Below, one piece after another: positions 27,242-63,642 of a stretch of DNA of 64,000 nt. The stretch covers positions 30,488 to 94,487 of the forward strand of contig JBKECM010000082.1 in assembly GCA_047974615.1 (NCBI GenBank), in the 5' to 3' direction. The DNA comes from Lachnospirales bacterium (GTDB taxonomy: Bacteria > Bacillota > Clostridia > Lachnospirales > CAMZNU01). A model generated the notes under the pieces. That model did no database searches. It was given only the letters and a program-made list of their open reading frames with translations, and had not been told where the DNA came from. Every line of letters starts with the position of its first letter. Within the stretch, counting starts at the first letter, position 1. A program made the translations under genes and the position numbers.

Positions 27242-27276
27242 AAAAGTGATGATGATTTTTTCATTATCACTTTTTT
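27242..27276 (+). terminator. Intrinsic terminator after the BMP lipoprotein gene
   Basis: AGTGATGATGA / TCATTATCACT stem (one G-U pair), T5 loop, T-run. Confidence 0.75.
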
Positions 27277-27279
27277 ATT

Positions 27280-27453
27280 TGGCAACGTTGCAAAATTCAA
27301 GAAATGGCACATTGCAAAAGGAAAAATCAAATTTTCATATTTTTGACAAACGCCTGAAATGGCAAAAAAAGCCATTTCTACAGTTTTTGTCAAAAATCGC
27401 AAAGCCGTTATTTTTCTGTGAAAATGGATTTTCTATATTTTGCAATGAAGCCA
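27280..27453 (+). mobile_element. F1 miniature inverted-repeat element, copy A (174 bp, lacks module 2)
   Basis: Starts TGGCAACGTTGCAAAAT and ends ATTTTGCAATGAAGCCA. Near-identical to the reverse complement of 50709-50941 apart from a ~50-nt internal gap. Begins 3 nt after the terminator. Confidence 0.8.
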
Positions 27454-27508
27454 TTTGGTTTAATCAACAAAAAATGGTATAAGGTAACGTTACCTATAGA
27501 TAAAAAAA

Positions 27509-29145: not shown

Positions 29146-29364
29146 TTATTTATTTTCATTTGCTTTTTCACGAGCTTCAATTTTATCAGTTAATTGAATT
29201 CCACCGTTACCAAAGTTGTCTGAAGACTTTTCATCTATTATGATCGCTACCGTTTCTTTTGGATAGCCTGTCGAATCAGATATTGCTTCTGTAACCTTTT
29301 CAATTAAGTCTCTTTTTTTATTTCTTGTTAAACCTTCTTTTAATGATACAAATACTGTTGGCAT
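29146..29364 (-). CDS. 4-oxalocrotonate tautomerase family enzyme
   Basis: 72 aa starting MPTVFVSLKEGLT (catalytic Pro1 after Met removal), beta-alpha-beta pattern. RBS GGAGGAAA. Confidence 0.8.
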   Translation of the reverse strand: MPTVFVSLKEGLTRNKKRDLIEKVTEAISDSTGYPKETVAIIIDEKSSDNFGNGGIQLTDKIEAREKANENK

Positions 29365-29506: not shown

Positions 29507-29542
29507 TAATAATTTTTTTTCTACTGACTTTGTCAGCACCCT
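29507..29542 (+). repeat. Solo terminal repeat of family F2 (F2-b)
   Basis: TAATAATTTTTTTTCTACTGACTTTGTCAGCACCCT aligns with the right end of F2-a (AGTAATATTTTTTTCTATCCTTTATCAGCACCCT). No partner end nearby. Confidence 0.65.
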
Positions 29543-29576
29543 CTGGTATAGACAGTTTTATGATAAATTTTCTAAT

Positions 29577-29762
29577 TGGCAACGTTGTAAAATTCAATAA
29601 ATGGCACATCGCAAAAGAAAAAATTAAATTTACATGTGTTTGTCAAAAGTCGCAAAGCCATTGTTTTGTAAAGAACCCGACGAACAAGGGCGACGAAGTC
29701 GTTTTCACGTAGTGAAAATTCCGATTTTAAAATGGATTTTTCTATATTTTGCAATGAAGCCA
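29577..29762 (+). mobile_element. F1 miniature inverted-repeat element, copy B (186 bp, lacks module 1)
   Basis: TGGCAACGTTGTAAAAT ... ATTTTGCAATGAAGCCA. Carries the GC-rich module 2 (29677-29723). Same orientation as copy A. Confidence 0.8.
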
Positions 29763-29891
29763 ATTATAAACATCAATAAAAAATGCAGTAAAGAAAAATT
29801 CTTTTAAATATTGACATTATTTGATATTTGTTTTAAAATTTTTATATATAATACATTAAAAAATTTTGTGTGAATTTAAGTGAGGGGAAGA

Positions 29892-31319: not shown

Positions 31320-32543
31320 ATGAGCAGACTTAAAATTACTGATGTAAAGACTATTATTACGGCACCTGAGGGTATAAATTTAGTTGTGGTTAAAATATAC
31401 ACAAATGAACAGGGACTTTATGGGTTGGGCTGTGCAACATTTACTCAAAGATACTTAGCTGTAGTTACTGCAGTCGATGAATATTTGAAACCATTCTTAA
31501 TTGGCAAAGATCCTGAAATGATTGAAGATATTTGGCAAACTGCTATGGTTAGTGGGTATTGGAGAAATGGACCTGTTTTAAATAATGCACTTTCTGGTGT
31601 AGATATGGCTTTATGGGACATTAAAGGTAAATTAGCAAATATGCCACTATATCAGTTATTTGGTGGTAAAGTTCGAGGTGGTGTTGCAGCTTACAAACAC
31701 GCTGATGGAACTTGCCTTTCTGAAGTAGAAGAAAATGTAAGAAAATGTCTTGAAGAAGGATATCTGAATGTACGTTGCCAAATGGGTACTTATGGTGGAG
31801 AAATGGGAGATAAAGCATCTAAGTCTCAAATTATTACAAAACCAATAGGTTCTTTACCCGGAGAATATTACGATCCGAAACAATATATGAGAGGTGTATA
31901 TAAACTTTTTGAACATATAAGAACAACTTTTGGTAATGAAGTTGGCTTATTACACGATGTACATGAAAGACTTTCACCAATCGATGCTGTAAATATGGCA
32001 AAAGAAATGCAACAATTTGATTTATTTTTCCTTGAAGATTTATTGCCACCAGAACAATTAGAATGGTTTAAAATGGTAAGACAACATTCAACAACACCAA
32101 TAGCTGTGGGTGAATTATTTAATAATCCCAATGAATGGATTAATTTAATCTCAAATAGATTAATTGATTATATACGTGTACACATAAGTCAAATAGGTGG
32201 AATTACGCCTACAAGGAAATTAGTTGCCCTTAGTGAAACTTTTGGTGTACGTACTGCTTGGCATGGACCGGGTGACCTTACACCTATAGGGCATGCAGTA
32301 AATGTTCATTTTTCAATATCAAGTACAAACTTTGGTATTCAAGAGTGGAATGGTTTTGAAGAACCAATATATGAAGTTTTTACGGGTTTACCAGAATTTA
32401 AAAAAGGATATATTTACCTTAATGAAAAACCGGGTATTGGTATAGATATTGATGAAAAGGCAGCTAAAAAGTATCCATGTGATAATACATTGCCAGATTG
32501 GACTTTGGCACGTTTGCCAGATGGCACGCCAACTAGACCGTAA
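31320..32543 (+). CDS. Enolase-superfamily D-mannonate dehydratase-like (ManD/RspA subgroup) enzyme
   Basis: 407 aa. MSRLKITDVKTIITAPEGINLVVVKI..GLYGLGCATF and LHDVHERL, EDLLPPE, GELF blocks typical of the ManD subgroup. Confidence 0.8.
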   Translation: MSRLKITDVKTIITAPEGINLVVVKIYTNEQGLYGLGCATFTQRYLAVVTAVDEYLKPFLIGKDPEMIEDIWQTAMVSGYWRNGPVLNNALSGVDMALWDIKGKLANMPLYQLFGGKVRGGVAAYKHADGTCLSEVEENVRKCLEEGYLNVRCQMGTYGGEMGDKASKSQIITKPIGSLPGEYYDPKQYMRGVYKLFEHIRTTFGNEVGLLHDVHERLSPIDAVNMAKEMQQFDLFFLEDLLPPEQLEWFKMVRQHSTTPIAVGELFNNPNEWINLISNRLIDYIRVHISQIGGITPTRKLVALSETFGVRTAWHGPGDLTPIGHAVNVHFSISSTNFGIQEWNGFEEPIYEVFTGLPEFKKGYIYLNEKPGIGIDIDEKAAKKYPCDNTLPDWTLARLPDGTPTRP

Positions 32544-32590
32544 TTAAGGATAGCAAAAGTAAAAATTAAAGTTTAAGAAGTTTATACTAT

Positions 32591-32651
32591 AGACTGTATC
32601 ACTATCAAGAAGTTAGGCTAAAAATTTAACTTTTTGATATTGATACAGTCT
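32591..32651 (+). terminator. Long hairpin after the dehydratase gene (terminator-like)
   Basis: 25-bp stem with two mismatches (AGACTGTATCACTATCAAGAAGTTA / TAACTTTTTGATATTGATACAGTCT), 11-nt loop, weak T tract. Confidence 0.5.
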
Positions 32652-32659
32652 TTATATAT

Positions 32660-33044
32660 AGTGTCGAAAAAGTTAACAAAGTAAAAAAATATGGGGGGTT
32701 TTGAAGAAAACGGGAAATTGCATAAAAAACAGAAAAAAATATAGTGGTATCAGTGCAAAATGCAACGTTGTGTAGTAACGAGGAGAATTTTCAATTAGAA
32801 AATGAAAATTTTTTAAGAATCTTCAAAGAAGTGCGACCTTAGGAACAAGCAAAACAACGATTTTGCGTTAAGTGAGTAAGGAAAAAGTCAAATGACCTTT
32901 CCTCAGTTATGGCTTTCGCCGTAATTTTCGGAAGATTAGCCATCACCTAAGACTACGCTTAGTGGCGAGGCTAATCTGTATGATTGAAATTATCTTATTG
33001 AGAAACTCCCAAATTAATTTTTTTCTAACCCTTTTCAGCACTTT
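32660..33044 (+). mobile_element. F2 element, long composite copy (F2-c, ~385 bp) carrying nested repeats
   Basis: The left end AGTGTCGAAAAAGTTAACAAAGTAAAAAAATAT and right end AATTAATTTTTTTCTAACCCTTTTCAGCACTTT match the two F2-a ends. Contains the mini F1 copy (32745-32773) and module X (32934-32978). Confidence 0.6.
32745..32773 (-). repeat. Miniature (ends-only) F1 copy E nested in F2-c
   Basis: TGGTATCAGTGCAAAATGCAACGTTGTGT aligns with copy D (TGGCTTCATTGCAAAAGGCAACGTTACCA) at about 21 of 29 positions. Confidence 0.55.
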
Positions 33045-33315
33045 CTTTAGTGTGGATAAACTTAATTGCTGTTTTCTTTAAAGTTATCATCTTAACGCCT
33101 TAGATTATTAGTTTAATAAATATTAAAAGTGACAATACAACTAAATTATGAAAAATTTAATAAAAACATATAAAAATAAACAAAAAATAGAAAAACAAAT
33201 AAAAATAAGAGACAAATACAATAAAAATCAATAGAGGATTTAATAAAAACATACAAAAATGTCTAATATATTACTATAAATAATTAAAAAAATGTAAAGA
33301 ATTTAAAAATAGTGA

Positions 33316-50654: not shown

Positions 50655-50705
50655 AAATAACCTATTGTGGTTTCTATTTATTTTACCGCAGTAGGTTATT
50701 TTGTT
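50655..50705 (+). terminator. Intrinsic terminator after eda
   Basis: 16-bp stem AAATAACCTATTGTGG / CCGCAGTAGGTTATTT (two G-U pairs), 15-nt loop, T-rich tail. Confidence 0.65.
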
Positions 50706-50708
50706 ATA

Positions 50709-50941
50709 TGGCTTCATTGCAAAATATAGAAAAATCCATTTTCATATCGGAATTTTCACTACGTGAAAACGACTTCGTCGCCCTTGTTCGTCGGATTCTT
50801 TACAAAACAATGGCTTTGTGGCTTTTGACAAAAACTGTGGAAATGGCGTCTTTTTTTGCCATTTCAGGCGTTTGTCAAAAGTATGATAATTTGATTTTTT
50901 CTTTTGCAATGTGCCATTTCTTGAATTTTGCAACGTTGCCA
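50709..50941 (-). mobile_element. F1 miniature inverted-repeat element, full-length copy C (233 bp)
   Basis: TGGCTTCATTGCAAAAT ... ATTTTGCAACGTTGCCA. Reverse complement of copies A and B, and contains both internal modules (50748-50794 and 50823-50880). Confidence 0.85.
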
Positions 50942-50961
50942 TATTGTTTGATAAGTTTATT

Positions 50962-53900
50962 TTAAATTTCTTCTAAGTGTAGTACACCATATCCATAAAA
51001 ATTATTAGGATATTGAAAGTTTTTTTCTCTTATTGCGTTTTTACGCAAGATTTTGCGTATTTCTTTTACTCCGTAATTGGGGTGCTTTTCTAGAATAAGA
51101 GCTATTAAACCTATAGTTAGGGCAACTCCCATTGATGTACCAGATATTTTTTCTATGTCATATAGACCGTAGGCATCTATATCAACAGAAGGAGAGGTAA
51201 TATCTATTTGCCTAAAAGTACTGTATTCTGTAGCACCACTAGCTTTGTAAAATGTACTAAGGTATATATCATAGCCAGATACAGAAATTAAATTATTTAT
51301 AGTACCGGGTATTGTTATTGAACCTAAAATTTTTGATGAATAAAAAGTTGTATTTTCAGTAGATAGGGGAAGCACAGGTAAATAAAATTCACAGCTTGCA
51401 GAAATGTTCAGTGGTACAAGTTCGATATACCAAATTCCTTTTATGAAGCCATCTAGCCCTATTTCTATTTCTGTTTTTTGATTTGTATTATTAAAATTTA
51501 TAGTGATGTTATAATCAAAAGTTTCTTTATAGTATGTGTTATTTTCTGTTAGATTAAAACTTAATTCTTCAAAATTTCTGTTACCTATGGTAAGTAAAAA
51601 TTTTGCATTTTTTTGTGTGTATATACTAATTTTTGTTTGAGGGTCATCAATATTTAGATATGTCATATTTTTTTCATTTATTATAGCCTTTGTTGTAGTG
51701 TGCTTTTTTGATAAACATTCATTACCTGTAGGTGCGACAATGATACAATTTTCATTTTTACTTATGTCTGCAAGTATTTTTTCAAAAGCACAAAGTTCAT
51801 TGTGCGAACCTTCATTTGAACTTAAGGGTATACCTATAATCATAGGTAAATTGTATTTTTTTTGTACTGATATTAAATAGGCTAAAGCTTTAAGAATATC
51901 TATTGAAGAAATACCGTAAAGTTCTGCATTTATAAAGCTTGATTTTTTATTTGTAGATGTTGTATCTGAAACTTTAGCACATATAATTTTTGATTTTGGT
52001 GCAATACCTTGAAAATTGTCTTGAAAATTACCACTTGCTACGGAAAATGAGTTTGTTCCATGTCCTATTGTATCAAAATCTTTTAAATCTTCATCAATTA
52101 CTTTTTGAATATCTTGTTTAAAGTATATTTTGTTTTCTGTAACATCATATATTTCTTCTACTCTTGTGTTGCCTTCGGTCATAAAAATACTATTTTTTAC
52201 GCATATTCCTGTATCTATAAAAGATATTATAACATTTTCTCCATAAAGGTTTTGGTTTTTATAAATTTTTGTTGCACCTATAAATTCTGAAACTTCATAA
52301 TTTGAGAGAGCAAAAATCTTTACTTTTTCAAAAAAAATTTTTTCTTTATATAGAAAATTTTGAAAATCTGTTATATATAAATAATTTACATCTACTATTA
52401 TATAATTAAATAAAATTTCTTTTACTATAAAGTCAACTATGCCTTCTAAAGTAGCTAAAAAACCGTTATCATCTTTCACTAAATATTCTACATATTCTTT
52501 TTCGCTTTCAACTAATGTAACTAGTTCTTCATAACAAACAAAACCAAAACCATATGCTATATTTGGATAGTCTATGTTTTTTAACTTTGTTGCACTTTTC
52601 TCAAGTAAAGATTTTATCTCTATAGAAGTGTAATTTGGATTTTTCTCAAATATTAAAGATACAATACCAGCTACTATAGGAGCTGCAAAACTTGTGCCTG
52701 TTTTATAGCTATAGCCATATACACTATCTGCACACCTAATATTTACACCCGGTGCTGCTACATTTGGTTTAATTTCATCTAAAACAGTATTGCCTAAACC
52801 TGAAAAGGTGGCAATAGATTGATTTTGTCCATCATAAGCGGAAACAGTAATAGCTTTTTTACTTGTTGAAGGGAAGGTAATAGTGTTTTCAATGTCACTA
52901 CTGCTAAAATACGTATCATATCCTACAGATTCTAAGATAGGTAAATATAAGTGTATTTTTTCATTGACTTTTCTTATATTCAAACTTAGTAGTACTATAG
53001 AATTTCTTGCTTCTTTATATATTATTTTTATATTAAAAGTGTTATAAATATCAGAAAGTAATTCACCGTATGAAACATAATACTCAACTTCATCTTCGAT
53101 AATGTGTTCAACACCTGTATTTTGCTTAAAAGTTCTTGAAACATATCCATTATCAAATTCTATGAAAAAATCTATTGTGCTATCACTTGGTACAAAAATA
53201 AAAATACTAAATTCTTGCACATTGCTTACAATTTCTATTCTATCTGAAGTTGTTGCTATTTTATGATGTCCTGAGTCACCTTCGTTACCGGCTGCTATTG
53301 TTATACCTATTTTTTTGTAGTTTACTATTTCGTCAAGATAATTTTCGAACAAAGTAAGACCACTATGGCTTGCGTTATTGCCACCCATACTAATATTAAT
53401 TGAGAGTGGTTTATTAAGAGATTTTGAAACTTCTCTTAAAAAATATATACCCTTTAATACTTCAAAAGATTTAGTATTTGAATTACTAATTTTTACTACA
53501 CATATATCTGATTTTGGTGCTACACCTGTGTTACCTGCACAAATAGAGGTTACAGAAGTACCATGACCAACTGTGTCAAGATGTCCTAGGGGTGTATTAT
53601 TGCTTAAGGATAAGTTAATGTCTTCTTCTGTATATAGTTTTCCGGTGCTTATTCCAAAGCCACCTGTTCCTTCTTGTGAAAAGTCTAGTATATATTTTAT
53701 TCTTGTTGTACCATCTGTATTTTTAAATTCTTGGTGGAAAATATCTATACCACTGTCAATTACTCCAATAACAGTATTCATACCTGTTTCTTCATAGTCT
53801 GTTAGGCAAGCATATTCCTTGTAGTTATCTGCTACACTTGCGTATTCTTCTTGATAAAATTCTATTTCATATGCAAGTTCTTGTGACAATATTTCAGCTG

Positions 53901-54129
53901 TATTTATAACATTAAAATAGTTAGTATAGTTACAGGTTATTATTGCATAATTACTACCTATTATTTCTACCATACCAAATTTTTTTAATGTGTTTTCTAT
54001 ATCTCCTAAGTATTTTACTAAAATAACAATTTCAAAATTGTTTAGGTAGTTTGAAATTACTGTTCTATCGTTATTTTTTATTGCATAATCAACTTGGTAA
54101 GAAAAAATATTATTCAATTTATTTTCCAA
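50962..54129 (-). CDS. Fused two-domain Csp-like subtilisin (S8) protease, CspBA-like
   Basis: Two tandem S8 units, each with a YAIIT-type propeptide. Residues are numbered on the 1080-aa track ORF. Triads: D150/H214/S505 (IDSG, GHGT, GTSFAAP) and D664/H715/S1024 (IDTG, GHGT, GTSMG). No signal peptide. Start placed at TTG 54129, 6 nt after GAGGTG; track codons 1-25 run into a repeat. Confidence 0.7.
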   Translation of the reverse strand: MENKLNNIFSYQVDYAIKNNDRTVISNYLNNFEIVILVKYLGDIENTLKKFGMVEIIGSNYAIITCNYTNYFNVINTAEILSQELAYEIEFYQEEYASVADNYKEYACLTDYEETGMNTVIGVIDSGIDIFHQEFKNTDGTTRIKYILDFSQEGTGGFGISTGKLYTEEDINLSLSNNTPLGHLDTVGHGTSVTSICAGNTGVAPKSDICVVKISNSNTKSFEVLKGIYFLREVSKSLNKPLSINISMGGNNASHSGLTLFENYLDEIVNYKKIGITIAAGNEGDSGHHKIATTSDRIEIVSNVQEFSIFIFVPSDSTIDFFIEFDNGYVSRTFKQNTGVEHIIEDEVEYYVSYGELLSDIYNTFNIKIIYKEARNSIVLLSLNIRKVNEKIHLYLPILESVGYDTYFSSSDIENTITFPSTSKKAITVSAYDGQNQSIATFSGLGNTVLDEIKPNVAAPGVNIRCADSVYGYSYKTGTSFAAPIVAGIVSLIFEKNPNYTSIEIKSLLEKSATKLKNIDYPNIAYGFGFVCYEELVTLVESEKEYVEYLVKDDNGFLATLEGIVDFIVKEILFNYIIVDVNYLYITDFQNFLYKEKIFFEKVKIFALSNYEVSEFIGATKIYKNQNLYGENVIISFIDTGICVKNSIFMTEGNTRVEEIYDVTENKIYFKQDIQKVIDEDLKDFDTIGHGTNSFSVASGNFQDNFQGIAPKSKIICAKVSDTTSTNKKSSFINAELYGISSIDILKALAYLISVQKKYNLPMIIGIPLSSNEGSHNELCAFEKILADISKNENCIIVAPTGNECLSKKHTTTKAIINEKNMTYLNIDDPQTKISIYTQKNAKFLLTIGNRNFEELSFNLTENNTYYKETFDYNITINFNNTNQKTEIEIGLDGFIKGIWYIELVPLNISASCEFYLPVLPLSTENTTFYSSKILGSITIPGTINNLISVSGYDIYLSTFYKASGATEYSTFRQIDITSPSVDIDAYGLYDIEKISGTSMGVALTIGLIALILEKHPNYGVKEIRKILRKNAIREKNFQYPNNFYGYGVLHLEEI

Positions 54130-54151
54130 AAAAATCACCTCACATAATATT

Positions 54152-54344
54152 GAGGGTGCTGAAAAAGTCAAAAAAGAAAAAAATATTACTAATGACAATG
54201 GCACAAAAATAGTGAGATAGCATAAAATCAGCGAGAAACGAGTGCTAATTTTATGCTACATGCAAGATGATTTGCAAAGCAAATCATCAAGTCGAGCGTA
54301 ATTTTTGTGAAGTAATATTTTTTTCTATCCTTTATCAGCACCCT
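54152..54344. mobile_element. F2 miniature inverted-repeat element (F2-a, 193 bp) flanked by a 10-bp direct repeat
   Basis: Imperfect ~38-nt terminal inverted repeats GAGGGTGCTGAAAAAGTCAAAAAAGAAAAAAATATTACT / AGTAATATTTTTTTCTATCCTTTATCAGCACCCT. Internal perfect hairpins TAGCATAAAAT..ATTTTATGCTA and GATGATTTGC-AAA-GCAAATCATC. ACATAATATT occurs at 54142-54151 and 54345-54354. Confidence 0.8.
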
Positions 54345-54377
54345 ACATAATATTATGTAAGGTGATTAGGATTAATG

Positions 54378-56687
54378 TTATTTTGTGTTATCATTGTCAA
54401 TTAAATTACTTTGTTCTTTATTATTATTTTCTTCAAGAAGAACTTCTACTTGTTCAAATTCGATAGCTTTGCTTATTTCTATAGATACTCCTTCTTTTTT
54501 TAAGTCTTCGATTTTATCTTTTTCTATTTGATATAAATCATCTATAGATAACTGTGGGTCTTCAACTTCTATAACAATATCAGGTTTATATTTTTTTAAC
54601 ATAATCATAAAATCTTTACCGTCTATATTTTCTTTATCAAGTAAAGCTTCAGATAGTTCAATTAATGCCTGCTTGTATTCTATAAGTAAATCTTTTGCTT
54701 TTTCAAAGCATATATCCAATATTTTGTTTACTTCTCTATCTACATCAGCTAAAGTTATATCAGAACAGTTTGAAGAACTTCTACCACCTAAGTATCTACT
54801 TTGAACTGTTTCGATACCCATCATCTTAAATGTGTCACTCATACCAAACATTGTAACCATTGTTCTAGCATTTGCAGTTGCGTGTTCAATATCATTAGAT
54901 GCACCTGTAGTTTCCATACCAAGTCCTACAATTTCTGCGGCACGACCTCCTAAAGATGTTATAATTTCTGTTAAAATTTCGTCTTTTGTTTTGAGAACTT
55001 TTTCTTCTTCAGGTGTGTACCAAGCAAAGCCTAAAACACCATTTGTACGAGGTACAATAGTAATTCTTTGTATAGGCGTTGAGTTTTCTTGTAGGGCAGA
55101 AGTTAAGGCGTGACCGATTTCGTGGTAAGCAATAAGTTTTCGTTCCTTTACGCTTATGTGGTTTTCTTTTTTCTCTTTACCACCAACTATAATTTCAACT
55201 GCTTTAATTAAGTCTTTTTGCTCGACTTCTTTTCTACCTTCACGAACAGCAAGTAAGGCAGCCTCATTTATAATATTTGCTAAATCTGCACCTGTTAAGC
55301 CCGTTGTTGCTAGGGCAACTTTTTTTAGATCTACGTGTGTGTTATATTTTACTTTTTTGATATGAACATTTAATATATCTTGACGACCTTTTAAGTCTGG
55401 TCTTTCAACTATAACTTGTCTATCAAAACGGCCTGGTCTAAGAAGTGCTTTATCAAGTATTTCAGGTCTGTTTGTAGCTGCTAAAATAACTATAGCATTT
55501 CTTGAATCGAAACCGTCAAGTTCAGATAAAAGTTGATTTAATGTTTGTTCACGCTCATCGTTACCACCAAACTGGTTATCACGACTTTTACCTATTGCAT
55601 CAATTTCATCTATAAAAATAATACAAGGTGAATTTTTTTTGGCTTCATTAAATAAGTCACGAACACGAGTTGCACCTACACCTACATACATTTCTATAAA
55701 TTCTGATCCAGATATAGACAAGAATGCCGCATTACTTTCTCCTGCTACAGCTTTTGCTAATAATGTCTTTCCGGTACCTGGAGGTCCCACTAATAAGGCG
55801 CCTTTAGGTTGTCTTGCACCTATTTCACGATATTTTTCAGGATTGTGTAAAAAGTCTACGATTTCGGTTAAGCTTTCTTTTGCCTCATCTTGTCCAGCTA
55901 CGTCATCAAAAGTTACACCGGTACAATCCTCTTTAACATATAGTTTGGCTTTAGATTTGCCTAAACCTAAACCACCATCACCTTTGAATTTTTTAGTTAT
56001 AAATACCATAACTAAAATCAATATACCATATGTAAGAAACATTGGTAAAACCCAATCAGTAATAATAGTTACAAGTTGATTATTATTTACTACATCTATA
56101 TAATATTTTACATCGTGTTCTTTAAAAAGTTGGTGTAAGGTTTCATCAGGTAAGCGTCCTGTATAAAATAAGGTATCTTCTGTAGGAGCTTGAGATTTTA
56201 GACGTTGAAATTCTCCAAAAGCAAGCATAAATTCTTCGTTGTTCTCTAAGTCTTCAGAAGATGTTGTTGTACTTTCTGTTTCATCTGTTTCAAAATAATC
56301 TGTTGTAATATTTTCAAGTTCTTCAACTTTTGGTGCGATAATTAATTTATCATATTGTATTTCTACTTCCTCGACATAGTCAGATTCTACCATACTTATG
56401 AAGGTATCATAACTAATTTGTACATTCTTATTTTGAAATGATGAAGTCATCAAGAAGTTAAAAGCAATAGTAAAACCTAAAGCCATAAAAAGAAAAGTGT
56501 AAACTTGTTTTGGTGATTGAGTAGGGGGTTTACCTTTGTTTTGATTATTCTTATTATCTTGATTATCATTTTTGTTATTGTTATTGCTGTTATTATTTTT
56601 TGAATCATTATTATTGATATCATTTTTTTGTTTTAAATCTTTGTTGTCATTATTTTTATTATTTCCGTTAAGATCTTTTTTGTCCAT
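54378..56687 (-). CDS. ftsH: ATP-dependent zinc metalloprotease FtsH
   Basis: Walker A GPPGTGKT, SRH, HEIGHAL zinc site. N/K/D-rich N-terminal extension. Start at ATG 56687 (MDKKDL); track start 56738 overlaps the upstream gene. Confidence 0.9.
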   Translation of the reverse strand: MDKKDLNGNNKNNDNKDLKQKNDINNNDSKNNNSNNNNKNDNQDNKNNQNKGKPPTQSPKQVYTFLFMALGFTIAFNFLMTSSFQNKNVQISYDTFISMVESDYVEEVEIQYDKLIIAPKVEELENITTDYFETDETESTTTSSEDLENNEEFMLAFGEFQRLKSQAPTEDTLFYTGRLPDETLHQLFKEHDVKYYIDVVNNNQLVTIITDWVLPMFLTYGILILVMVFITKKFKGDGGLGLGKSKAKLYVKEDCTGVTFDDVAGQDEAKESLTEIVDFLHNPEKYREIGARQPKGALLVGPPGTGKTLLAKAVAGESNAAFLSISGSEFIEMYVGVGATRVRDLFNEAKKNSPCIIFIDEIDAIGKSRDNQFGGNDEREQTLNQLLSELDGFDSRNAIVILAATNRPEILDKALLRPGRFDRQVIVERPDLKGRQDILNVHIKKVKYNTHVDLKKVALATTGLTGADLANIINEAALLAVREGRKEVEQKDLIKAVEIIVGGKEKKENHISVKERKLIAYHEIGHALTSALQENSTPIQRITIVPRTNGVLGFAWYTPEEEKVLKTKDEILTEIITSLGGRAAEIVGLGMETTGASNDIEHATANARTMVTMFGMSDTFKMMGIETVQSRYLGGRSSSNCSDITLADVDREVNKILDICFEKAKDLLIEYKQALIELSEALLDKENIDGKDFMIMLKKYKPDIVIEVEDPQLSIDDLYQIEKDKIEDLKKEGVSIEISKAIEFEQVEVLLEENNNKEQSNLIDNDNTK

Positions 56688-56727
56688 TTGAGTACCCTTT
56701 TTCTTTATACTATTTAATAGCAAATAA

Positions 56728-57342
56728 CTAAAATACAATATCTTTACGACTATTTAATTCCCATAAATACAAGCTTAAAATTGAACAATATGGTGAATAT
56801 ATTTCCTTTAAATTTAAAAATATTTTTTTATCCATTTTTTCTAAATTGTGTATTCTCATTAAGCTTTTTTTTATAATTAAATCATTATAGCTTAATATAT
56901 TCAATCTATTAAGTGAAAAAATCATAAACATTTCTATAGTCCACTCACCAATGCCTTTTACTTCAATTAAACTATTAAAAATTTCTTCATCTGATAAGTA
57001 ATTAATTTTTTTAAAAAAATTTTCGTTTTCAAGTGCAAAAAAAGATAGATTTTTAATATATTCAACTTTTCTTTGAGATAAGCCACAAGATTTTAATGTT
57101 TCATCGTTTATTTCCATAATGTTTTTAGGTGTGACTTCTTTTACCGTTTCCAAAAATTTATTTCTTATGCTTTTTGAGGCTTGTTTTGAAATTTGTTGAC
57201 CTATTATTTGGTTAACTAAAGTTGCAAAATGATTTGTATTTATCGGTCTTTCTATTAAACCAATCTCATCAATAATGAGAGAAACTCTATCATTTTTTTG
57301 CTTTAAAATATTTAGTTGTTCTTCTGTATATTTAAAAAACAT
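56728..57342 (-). CDS. HhH-GPD DNA glycosylase (3-methyladenine DNA glycosylase II / AlkA-like)
   Basis: VKGIGEWTIEMFMIF helix-hairpin-helix and a downstream catalytic Asp (YNDL). Start at ATG 57342 behind GGAGGG. Confidence 0.75.
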   Translation of the reverse strand: MFFKYTEEQLNILKQKNDRVSLIIDEIGLIERPINTNHFATLVNQIIGQQISKQASKSIRNKFLETVKEVTPKNIMEINDETLKSCGLSQRKVEYIKNLSFFALENENFFKKINYLSDEEIFNSLIEVKGIGEWTIEMFMIFSLNRLNILSYNDLIIKKSLMRIHNLEKMDKKIFLNLKEIYSPYCSILSLYLWELNSRKDIVF

Positions 57343-57458
57343 AAGCCCTCCATAAATATATATTTTCATTATACATTATTAATTATAAAAATGCAAATAA
57401 TATAGAAAGTTTATTGTATAAAATTTATTATTAAAAAAAATTTTTTTAATAATAAATA

Positions 57459-57499
57459 AAAAGATATAAAAAGTCGTTATTTGACTGTTTATATCTTTT
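57459..57499. terminator. Bidirectional terminator downstream of sstT
   Basis: AAAAGATATAAA / TTTATATCTTTT 12-bp stem with an inner AGTC/GACT extension. T-rich on both sides. Confidence 0.7.
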
Positions 57500-57514
57500 T
57501 ATTTATTATTATTA

Positions 57515-58744
57515 TTATTTTATATTAACTGTTTCACCAGCTTTTTTTCTTTTTGCAATATCAGCAGTTGCTGTTAAAAGAACGTCTGAAGATGAGTTAA
57601 GTGCAGTTTCACAAGAGTCTTGAAGAACACCTACGATAAAACCAACACCAACAACTTGCATTGCTACATCATTTGGGATACCAAATAAACTACAAGCAAG
57701 TGGAATTAAAAGTAGTGAACCACCAGCAACACCAGAATCACCAAAAGCAATTACAGATGCTACAATACAATGTAATAAATCCATTAAAAAGTCAACTTGT
57801 ATACCTACTGTATACGCTGCAGATAATGTTAATACATTTATTGTAATTTCTGCTCCATCCATATTTATTGTTGCTCCAAGAGGTATAGAAACAGCATATG
57901 TATCTTTATCTAAACCTAATTCTTCGCAAAGTTGCATATTTACTGGTATATTTGCTGCTGAACTTCTTGTAAAGAATGCAGTGATACCACTTTGTCTAAT
58001 ACATCTAAAAACTAGAGGGTATGGGTTTTGCTTAATGTTTAAGTAAACTATAATAGGGTTTGTTACAAATGCACAGAAAAGCATTGAACCTACTAAAACT
58101 CCTAATAATTTTGAGTATACTAAAAGCGTACCTAAACCACCTTCTGAAACAGTTGAGAAGATTAAACCCATTATACCAAAAGGTGCAAGTTGGATAACCC
58201 ATCTAACTATTGTAGACGTAGCATCTGAAAAATCAGAAATCATTTGTTTTGTAGATGCGTTTGCATTTTTTAAAGTTATACCGAATAAAAGCGAAGTAAC
58301 TAAGATACCAATATAGTTACCGTTGTAAAGAGCGTTTATAGGGTTTGCTACAGCGTTTAATAATAAAGCTTGAACAACTTCACCAATACCTCCCGGAGGT
58401 GCTGTACTTTCAGGTATATCTGCTAAGATTAATTCCGTAGGGAACATAAAACTTGCAGCTACGGCTACAAGAGCAGCTACTATTGTACTTATAACATAAA
58501 GTGCAATAATATGCTTCATATTCGTTTGACTACCTTCTTTATGTTGCGCTATAGCTGACATAACTAGGAAGAAAACGAGAATTGGTGCTATACCTTTTAA
58601 TGCACCAACAAATAATGTTCCAAAAAATGAAACAAATCCAAAAATGTTTGGTGCCACTAAACCTAAAATAGTACCCAGTATAAGACCTGCTACTATTCTT
58701 GCTATTAATGAATAGCTTGACCATTTTTCTAGTAGTTTATAAAT
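57515..58744 (-). CDS. sstT: Serine/threonine:sodium symporter SstT (DAACS family), probable ATT start
   Basis: The frame is continuous upstream of track start 58657 and encodes the first TM helix ([26 protein letters not shown]). An in-frame TGA lies at 58759-58757. The only start-like codon is ATT 58744, 7 nt after GAGGAGG. Confidence 0.75.
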
Positions 58745-58827
58745 AAAAAAACCTCCTCAGTACATATTAAATATGTATAATTTTTTAGTAATTATATCAT
58801 ATAAATAAAATAAAAGCAAATATTTTT

Positions 58828-58860
58828 TATAATATAATAAATATTATTTATTATATTATA
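58828..58860. repeat. 33-bp perfect AT-only palindrome
   Basis: TATAATATAATAAATA-T-TATTTATTATATTATA, between the ylmC stop and the sstT upstream region. Confidence 0.8.
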
Positions 58861-58865
58861 AATTT

Positions 58866-63600: not shown

Positions 63601-63613
63601 TAATTTTACTATA

Positions 63614-63642
63614 TGGCTTCATTGCAAAAGGCAACGTTACCA
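63614..63642 (-). repeat. Miniature (ends-only) F1 copy D
   Basis: TGGCTTCATTGCAAAA directly joined to GGCAACGTTACCA, i.e. both F1 terminal repeats with no interior. Lies between the htpG stop and its terminator. Confidence 0.7.

Follow-up and report, generated by a model that had tools for sequence, protein, structure and literature searches.

A miniature transposon-like element within a conserved hairpin at the ftsH–csp-like protease gene junction of a Lachnospirales bacterium

Results

Structure of the ftsH–csp-like junction

The subject of this study is F2-a, a short element lying between ftsH and the gene of a Csp-like protease in a 64-kb stretch of contig JBKECM010000082.1 of a Lachnospirales bacterium (this whole stretch is referred to below as the window; its G+C content is 28.7%). 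Both genes are encoded on the minus strand, with ftsH upstream, and are separated by a spacer of 248 nt, which contains F2-a (Table 1). The Csp-like protein showed 100% identity, at full-length coverage, to a protein (P0001) present at NCBI in a metagenome-assembled genome (MAG) labelled 'Lachnospirales bacterium', and a protein search revealed the CspB prodomain (PF18425) in its more distant homologs. The TTG start codon of the csp-like gene (54127-54129) is in frame, gives the same product of 1055 amino acids (aa) as the NCBI annotation, and aligns with the ATG codon of the closest ortholog (locus L001). Upstream of this codon the csp-like frame (54130-54204, minus strand) stays open for 25 further codons, extending into F2-a up to a GTG at 54204. 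Because the insertion keeps this upstream frame open, a mechanically generated list of open reading frames (ORFs) gives a protein of 1080 aa instead of 1055 aa.

Table 1. Features of the ftsH–csp-like junction and F2-related sequences in the window (positions counted from the first nucleotide of the window)
Feature	Position	Strand	Basis
ftsH coding sequence	54378..56690	-	Pfam FtsH_ext, AAA, AAA_lid_3, Peptidase_M41; translation
ftsH stop codon TAA	54378-54380	-	sequence
5' arm of the conserved hairpin, (A)AUCACCUUACAU, with anti-Shine-Dalgarno CACCUU	54355..54367	-	sequence, inverted repeat; also in L001, L002, L005
Target-site duplication, ftsH-proximal copy, ACATAATATT on the plus strand	54345..54354		direct repeat
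F2-a, non-coding MITE-like element, 193 bp	54152..54344		inverted repeats, no long ORF, absence from orthologous junctions, rod fold z = -14.5
F2-a terminal inverted repeats	about 54152-54190 and 54311-54344		inverted-repeat search
F2-a inner hairpins	54218-54258 and 54266-54288		inverted-repeat search
Target-site duplication, csp-proximal copy, ACATAATATT	54142..54151		direct repeat
Promoter-like hybrid site: -35 TTGACT (54166-54171, inverted repeat), -10 TATTAT (54144-54149, duplicated target)	54144..54171	-	consensus match only
3' arm of the hairpin, AUGUGAGGUGAU, with Shine-Dalgarno GAGGUGA at 54135-54141	54134..54145	-	sequence, folding, consensus structure
Run of 7 U after the stem; last two U belong to the UUG start	54128..54134	-	sequence; orthologs have U6-AUG or U7-G in the same place
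Csp-like protease gene, two S8 subtilase domains, 1055 aa, TTG start	50962..54129	-	Pfam Peptidase_S8 (4 matched stretches)
Element of ~390 bp with F2-type ends (TATAGTGTCGAAAAAG ... CTTTTCAGCACTTTC)	32657..33045 (boundaries approximate)		outer 3' portion of a long hairpin that follows gene 31320-32543
F2-b, terminal fragment (GAGGGTGCTGACAAAGTCAG...), flank TGGTATAGAC, not ACATAATATT	29507..29543	-	84% over 37 nt, E = 5e-6

F2-a is bordered by perfect 10-bp direct repeats, and both these repeats and the 193-bp element between them were found exactly where the original prediction, made from the sequence of this stretch, had placed them. With the base composition of the window, a perfect match of two 10-mers is expected by chance at approximately 5e-6 per position pair. 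The imperfect terminal inverted repeats, for which a length of about 38 nt had been proposed, were recovered as a pairing of 54144-54179 with 54318-54353 (36 nt, 75% complementary) and, in a self-BLAST comparison, as a match of 54133-54190 to 54367-54311 (80% over 61 nt, E = 3e-7). They include a perfect 16-nt inner block (54175-54190 with 54311-54326), and overall measure 36–38 nt with 75–80% complementarity. The longest ORF inside F2-a encodes only 37 aa, and a protein search with a 40-aa internal frame produced no match. The element corresponds to no Rfam family, either in a scan of the whole window at gathering thresholds or in a scan of region 54000-54500 at E <= 10, which returned only chance-level hits; tRNA and tmRNA genes were not found in the window.

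In silico deletion of positions 54152-54354, i.e. of F2-a together with one copy of the direct repeat, restores on the minus strand the sequence AAUCACCUUACAU-AAUAUU-AUGUGAGGUGAUU, followed by a U-run and GG. The resulting hairpin has a 12-bp stem, including one G-U and four G-C pairs (RNAfold draws 14 bp), and a free energy of -17.5 kcal/mol, which is within the range of the other palindromes of the window (approximately -9 to -34 kcal/mol, mostly -17 to -29 kcal/mol). The 10-bp duplicated target consists of the hairpin loop AAUAUU plus the 4 nt with which the 3' arm begins. The reconstruction of an intrinsic terminator put forward previously was therefore correct with regard to the 12-bp stem, its single G-U pair and the U-run, but only six U residues follow the 12-bp stem (seven T are present in total), and the 5' arm begins 11–12 nt, not 13 nt as claimed, past the final base of the ftsH stop codon. 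The proposal that the 3' arm is at the same time the Shine-Dalgarno (SD) sequence of the csp-like gene, used with a TTG start, is in agreement with the sequence, the NCBI start and the ortholog alignment; the start codon is located 5 nt after the SD. We also considered whether the hairpin is a genome-wide repeat: it is unique within the window and was found elsewhere only at orthologous junctions. A conserved CATA motif of the 5' arm, noticed by eye as a candidate -10 element of a sporulation sigma factor, was dropped, as it has no consistent -35 partner.

Empty sites in related genomes

The search with the Csp-like protein identified relatives showing 60, 53, 52, 51, 51 and 36% identity, and their contigs were compared with the window. 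In the closest of them (L001, 60%), ftsH is placed directly upstream, the spacer is 56 nt long and reads GTCACCTTACAT-ACTATT-ATGTGAGGTGAT-TTTTT-ATGGAAAATAAATTA..., and the start codon occupies the same place. The hairpin of L001 is identical to the reconstructed one except for a single difference in the loop; it carries no insert and contains a single copy of the target, ACTATTATGT. The window with the element excised aligns colinearly with L001, as revealed by explicit excision and pairwise alignment (a MAFFT alignment of the filled and empty junctions was discarded, since it misplaced the 5' arm). Neither of two more distant loci, L002 (53%; ACACCTTACATA-TAATTAGAAAAATTA-TGTGAGGTGT-TTTTTT-TG) and L005 (51%; its contig begins inside the same hairpin), contains an insert; both have the same arms, loops of 11–13 nt, and then T7 and G. 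Thus, the empty hairpin anticipated in the original prediction is present at the orthologous ftsH–csp-like junctions of L001, L002 and L005. Because these relatives carry the hairpin in its empty form, it is ancestral to a clade, and the 203 extra bases represent an insertion that occurred in the lineage of the window. No such hairpin is present in the relative of 36% identity (L020), in which ftsH and the csp-like gene are 1.1 kb apart; this spacer (L020 2901-4000) is AT-rich, contains no ORF longer than 48 aa, and has a conventional terminator directly after ftsH.

The consensus structure of the four sequences (the excised window, L001, L002 and L005) comprises 12 pairs, 10 of which are invariant, with one compensatory change (U-A to A-U) at the base of the stem. 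The arms CACCTTACAT / ATGTGAGGTG are nucleotide-identical in the window (54134-54367), L001 (3183-3213), L002 (4959-4997) and L005 (1-33), while the proteins are 51–60% identical, and this identity includes the ACAT/ATGT part located outside the SD. Such invariance alongside proteins that have diverged by 40–49% suggests, for the four sequences available, a sequence-specific constraint beyond pairing, possibly a protein site or a promoter element.

As in intrinsic terminators and SD-sequestering hairpins, the junctions of all four genomes contain a stable stem placed downstream of the ftsH stop codon and directly before a U-run, with GAGGUG paired in the 3' arm beside the start codon. The ancestral hairpin thus looks like an intrinsic terminator whose 3' arm holds the only SD of the protease gene, and its terminating and SD-masking activities are presumed from this layout; it could combine the roles of attenuator and translational mask. 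It differs from the usual terminators in that its U-run leads straight into the start codon of the next gene, and the protease gene must therefore depend for its expression on transcripts that either traverse the hairpin or start inside it. A simple terminator scanner did not call the hairpin of L001.

Other F2-type sequences

Within the 64-kb window, the F2 family is represented by one complete copy (F2-a), one terminal fragment (F2-b) and one relative of about 390 bp. F2-b is situated 12 nt from a copy of another element, F1 (described below), in a divergent promoter region (between genes ending at 29364 on the minus strand and starting at 29880 on the plus strand), and its other end is degenerate or deleted. 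The ~390-bp relative occupies the outer 3' part of a 76-nt hairpin (window 32583-33065), with its tip TATAGTG paired to TACTATA of the 5' side. The three remaining F2-type ends (29543, 32657 and 33045) share the inverted repeat with F2-a, have different flanks, and lack ACATAATATT; the 10-mer is thus not a part of the F2 ends, contrary to one of the possibilities raised previously. The inverted-repeat consensus of all five ends is (G/T)A(G/A)(G/A)GTG(C/T)(T/C)GA.AA(A/G)G. Around the ~390-bp relative, the search for a duplication yielded nothing cleaner than the split 6-mers TCTTTA and TAGTGT.

Searches for further copies and for a parent element extended beyond the window. The pattern AGGGTGCTGANAAAGN{2,10}GAAAAAAA gave 8 matches in the GTDB representatives, 6 in the JGI metagenomes and 0 in IMG/VR; BLAST similarity stopped at the pattern itself, and these matches were rejected as due to chance. 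BLAST analysis with F2-a yielded a single A-rich chance match in plasmids and none in phages. No gene containing DDE_Tnp_1 or DDE_Tnp_1_assoc was seen in the window, the Pfam analysis covering only part of the window ORFs.

Predicted folding of the filled junction

A 245-nt transcript, extending from just past the ftsH stop codon to the end of the U-run, is predicted to form one rod of -95.5 kcal/mol (mean of shuffled sequences -38.9 kcal/mol, z = -14.5). The original arms are re-paired at its base, where the palindromic sequence of the duplicated loop lengthens the helix to 18 uninterrupted pairs directly ahead of the U-run; in this predicted fold each base of the SD is paired with the original 5' arm at a probability of 0.996–1.0.

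The original prediction had reached the opposite view, namely that, with the arms some 200 nt apart, termination could be weakened and the SD unmasked. According to this alternative, displacement of the anti-SD arm from the SD by 203 nt would result in a weaker ftsH terminator, an exposed SD, read-through, and increased translation of the Csp-like protein. In its favour is the order of synthesis: the 5' arm can pair first with the duplicated loop and the tip of the element (CACCUUACAU-AAUAUU-AUGUAGGGUG, -13.7 kcal/mol), forming a hairpin with no U-run behind it. Should this early hairpin persist, the SD would be left with a CCUC...GAGG hairpin of 5–7 bp, and the region would have an energy of -8.8 kcal/mol, compared with -17.5 kcal/mol for the ancestral hairpin. 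If the rod failed to form, the element tip CACCCUC could still pair with the SD, giving a weaker local hairpin ahead of the U-run; this hairpin is the sole terminator-like site reported by the scanner in this region. However, enforcing the competing left-junction hairpin costs 19 kcal/mol, the rod being more stable by this amount than any fold that keeps it, and in equilibrium folds of the growing transcript (prefix folds) the inverted repeats displace the left-junction hairpin once the right repeat has been made. Moreover, with the SD paired to its original arm almost completely, the helix preceding the U-run becomes longer, not shorter. The predicted folds therefore do not favour unmasking, and we consider this outcome unlikely. 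The insertion was most likely tolerated owing to the predicted preservation of the hairpin, with at most secondary effects on expression according to the folding model, and it is presumably near-neutral.

One such secondary effect, compatible with preservation of the hairpin, could be exerted by RNase III. The long duplex formed by F2-a and the arms might be a new substrate of this enzyme, whose cleavage would split the ftsH and csp-like mRNAs and alter their stability or translation. The 18-bp perfect helix is continued by the inverted-repeat pairing to more than 30 bp with small bulges, while the ancestral hairpin of 14 bp is likely too short for RNase III. A precedent is provided by the transcripts of Correia elements, which bind RNase III and are either cleaved or protected by it (PMC2649163). 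On the other side, the sequence of the ftsH–csp-like junction offers no evidence of cleavage, and we regard this addition to the preferred explanation as rather unlikely.

Neighbouring elements and genes

The window also contains a second, unrelated MITE-like family, F1 (about 170–240 bp; ends TGGCAACGTTGCAAAAT...ATTTTGCAATGAAGCCA), with copies at 27259-27476, 29556-29785 and 50704-50944 and a fragment at 63603-63629. As judged by eye, each of the copies is flanked by a 2-bp duplication (TT, AT, TA). One of them directly follows the stop codon of the csp-like gene, which thus has a different element on each side. In another relative (L004, 9-52), which lacks the 5' arm of the hairpin, a sequence matching an F1 end (97% over 38 nt) was also identified, about 50 nt before the SD of the csp-like gene. 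Near-pure A/T palindromes of 35–65 nt with 86–97% complementarity are located at 57423-57511 and 58826-58862, in the spacers after genes 56728-57369 and 57515-58657; these may be terminators or another type of repeat.

The ftsH start at ATG 56690 is a putative choice; the frame stays open to 56738. The N-terminal extension of FtsH (about 60 residues; window 56500-56690, minus strand), which precedes the first membrane segment, is very rich in Asn, Lys and Asp (NNKNNDNKD..., NNNSNNNNKNDNQDNKNNQNK).

Discussion

Sequence comparison shows that F2-a has been inserted, with true duplication of a 10-bp target, at the border of the loop and the 3' arm of the hairpin, and that it resembles MITEs (transposable elements of the miniature inverted-repeat type). 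It shares with them (i) a length below 500 bp without a transposase gene, (ii) terminal inverted repeats, and (iii) a target duplication matched by a single-copy empty site. A further hallmark, a cognate autonomous insertion sequence (IS) with the same inverted repeats, was not found in the sequence sets scanned. F2-a is similar to Correia elements (also known as CREE) of Neisseria, Nezha of cyanobacteria and RUP of pneumococcus in being short, non-coding and intergenic, in having terminal inverted repeats and a target duplication, and in its very stable rod-like RNA fold. It differs from them in the number of copies (one complete copy so far) and in the length of the duplication (10 bp), and has no sequence similarity to any described MITE. 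Correia and RUP elements duplicate the dinucleotide TA. Comparison of filled and empty sites between related genomes, on which our identification of the insertion is based, is feasible for bacterial MITEs in general (reviewed in PMC3184786).

The tip of the element (nAGGG) and the 10-bp duplication indicate that ISAs1 is the best-fitting transposase family, which we infer as a lead and not as a membership. The inverted repeats of the ISAs1 family measure 14–22 bp, begin with CAGGG and are accompanied by 10-bp direct repeats (PMC11946415); a 10-bp duplication was also reported for a Frankia element (PMC11946415), and ISArsp11, with the inverted repeat CAGGGCTGATGCAAAGTCG, likewise generates a 10-bp direct repeat (PMC6305408). 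The F2 ends GAGGG, TAGGG and GAGGG match CAGGG in 4 of 5 bases, the first base being G or T in place of the C of the ISAs1 family, and the duplication of F2-a falls within the 8–10 bp typical of ISAs1-type elements. Alignment of the F2 end GAGGGTGCTGAAAAAGTCA with the inverted repeat of ISArsp11 reveals the common blocks AGGG..CTGA..AAAGTC, two indels being needed. Two ISAs1 elements read from plasmids have inverted repeats that begin with CAGGGCT and are otherwise unlike F2. When plasmids were searched by tblastn with E. coli YhhI (868 records), no Firmicute that could carry an ISAs1 element with F2-like ends occurred among the 60 records listed or the ten commonest genera, 91 further genera being outside this listing.

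Taken as a whole, the insertion of an ISAs1-type MITE into a conserved hairpin, tolerated by rebuilding of this hairpin, is in our opinion the probable explanation of the junction. F2-a would be a non-autonomous MITE-like DNA transposon, mobilised in trans by a DDE-type transposase making 10-bp staggered cuts. The cut would have covered the loop (6 nt) and the 4 nt opening the 3' arm, these 10 nt being then duplicated, in a hairpin that may limit ftsH read-through and mask translation initiation. F2-a is a long imperfect palindrome whose tips (AGGGUG / CACCCU) resemble the hairpin arms, and the transcript is therefore predicted to fold as one rod of 230 nt.

Several points weigh against this explanation: (i) only one complete copy of the element is known, with no further copy in the GTDB representatives, JGI metagenomes, IMG/VR, plasmids or phages; (ii) no transposase with matching ends was found in these sequence sets, in the window or at the loci of the relatives, an absence of the autonomous partner that may reflect sampling; (iii) the link to ISAs1 is based on agreement at 4 of 5 tip bases, on a gapped similarity to a single IS and on the length of the duplication; (iv) the relatives are distant (no more than 60% protein identity), which places the insertion no more precisely than after the divergence from L001, and an empty allele polymorphic within the same species was not observed; and (v) the folds are equilibrium predictions, and the hairpin of the 5' arm, the duplicated loop and the tip AGGGUG, which forms first in transcription and has no U-run, could delay formation of the rod.

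It is also conceivable that the choice of the target was not accidental. F2-type elements might be hairpin-seeking MITEs, whose tips (AGGGTG / CACCCT) mimic SD/anti-SD sequences or terminator arms, whose transposase is drawn to similar palindromes, and whose insertion in or beside the loop rebuilds the hairpin of the host. The tips indeed resemble the hairpin arms (AGGGTG compared with GAGGTG, and CACCCT compared with CACCTT), and because of this resemblance both junctions can re-form hairpins; only about 0.3% of random positions have a CACCYT motif 10–30 nt upstream. Excision of the ~390-bp relative in silico lengthens its hairpin from -35 to -49 kcal/mol, a post hoc result obtained by scanning the boundaries, and the F1 end upstream of the csp-like gene in L004 was counted as a further hint. 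Preference for such sequences is known for other elements: IS1397, ISKpn1 and other ISs insert into extragenic palindromes (repetitive extragenic palindromic sequences, REP, also called palindromic units, PU) (PMC1525189, PMC3184786). F2-a resembles IS1397 and ISKpn1 in that its target is an extragenic hairpin-forming palindrome; these ISs are, however, autonomous and their target is a high-copy repeat family, whereas the target of F2-a is a unique hairpin. With one clear and one unclear case, the data hint at palindrome-like or inverted-repeat-like targeting, and there is in our view only a slim chance that the hairpin-seeking behaviour is real.

Another possibility is that the insertion created a hybrid promoter, with the -35 box provided by the inverted repeat and the -10 box by the duplicated target (Table 1), from which a csp-like transcript with a short leader, devoid of the anti-SD arm, is produced. 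This site matches the consensus at 10 of 12 positions with a 16-nt spacer, is correctly oriented toward the csp-like gene, and ends 14 nt before its start codon; outward and hybrid promoters have been documented for Correia elements, which alter neighbouring genes both in this way and via RNase III (PMC2649163). Sites of this quality occur, however, at 0.58 per kb per strand in the AT-rich window (in approximately 3–4% of comparable 60-nt stretches), and the number of promoter-like matches in the region is at the level of shuffled sequences (7 vs 5.8). The predicted transcription start would, moreover, fall inside the SD, and transcription of a germination protease gene is expected to rely on a sporulation sigma factor and not on a promoter of the sigma-70 type. 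We find such a promoter very unlikely.

Finally, the reading without any transposition, in which the 10-mer is an extension of the palindrome (the target being palindromic, part of the repeat can also be read as an inverted repeat), or the relatives have precisely lost an ancestral segment of 193 bp, or the junction is an assembly artefact of the MAG from which it comes, is largely refuted and of negligible probability, as three independent genomes carry a single 10-mer copy in an intact hairpin and would require three separate precise deletions, other F2-type ends lack the 10-mer, and a chimeric join would not place perfect 10-bp repeats exactly where an element with inverted repeats begins and ends.

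The insertion of a MITE into a hairpin is a known kind of event; it involves no new mechanism and leaves the knowledge of MITEs and terminators unchanged. What the locus offers is a small transposon placed at the one spot of a 45-nt regulatory junction that tolerates a palindromic insert, with both the filled and the empty sites available, and a conserved layout of an uncultured Lachnospirales lineage, in which a terminator-like hairpin follows ftsH and provides, in its 3' arm, the ribosome-binding site for a Csp-type germination protease gene. If F2-type elements were truly hairpin-seeking, they would colonise constrained regulatory junctions without killing them, and the added long duplex, sometimes together with a -35 box, could retune a sporulation or germination gene. 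If the hairpin gates expression of the protease, the filled and empty alleles would constitute a natural experiment on how large a loop and how much extra duplex such a gate can absorb.

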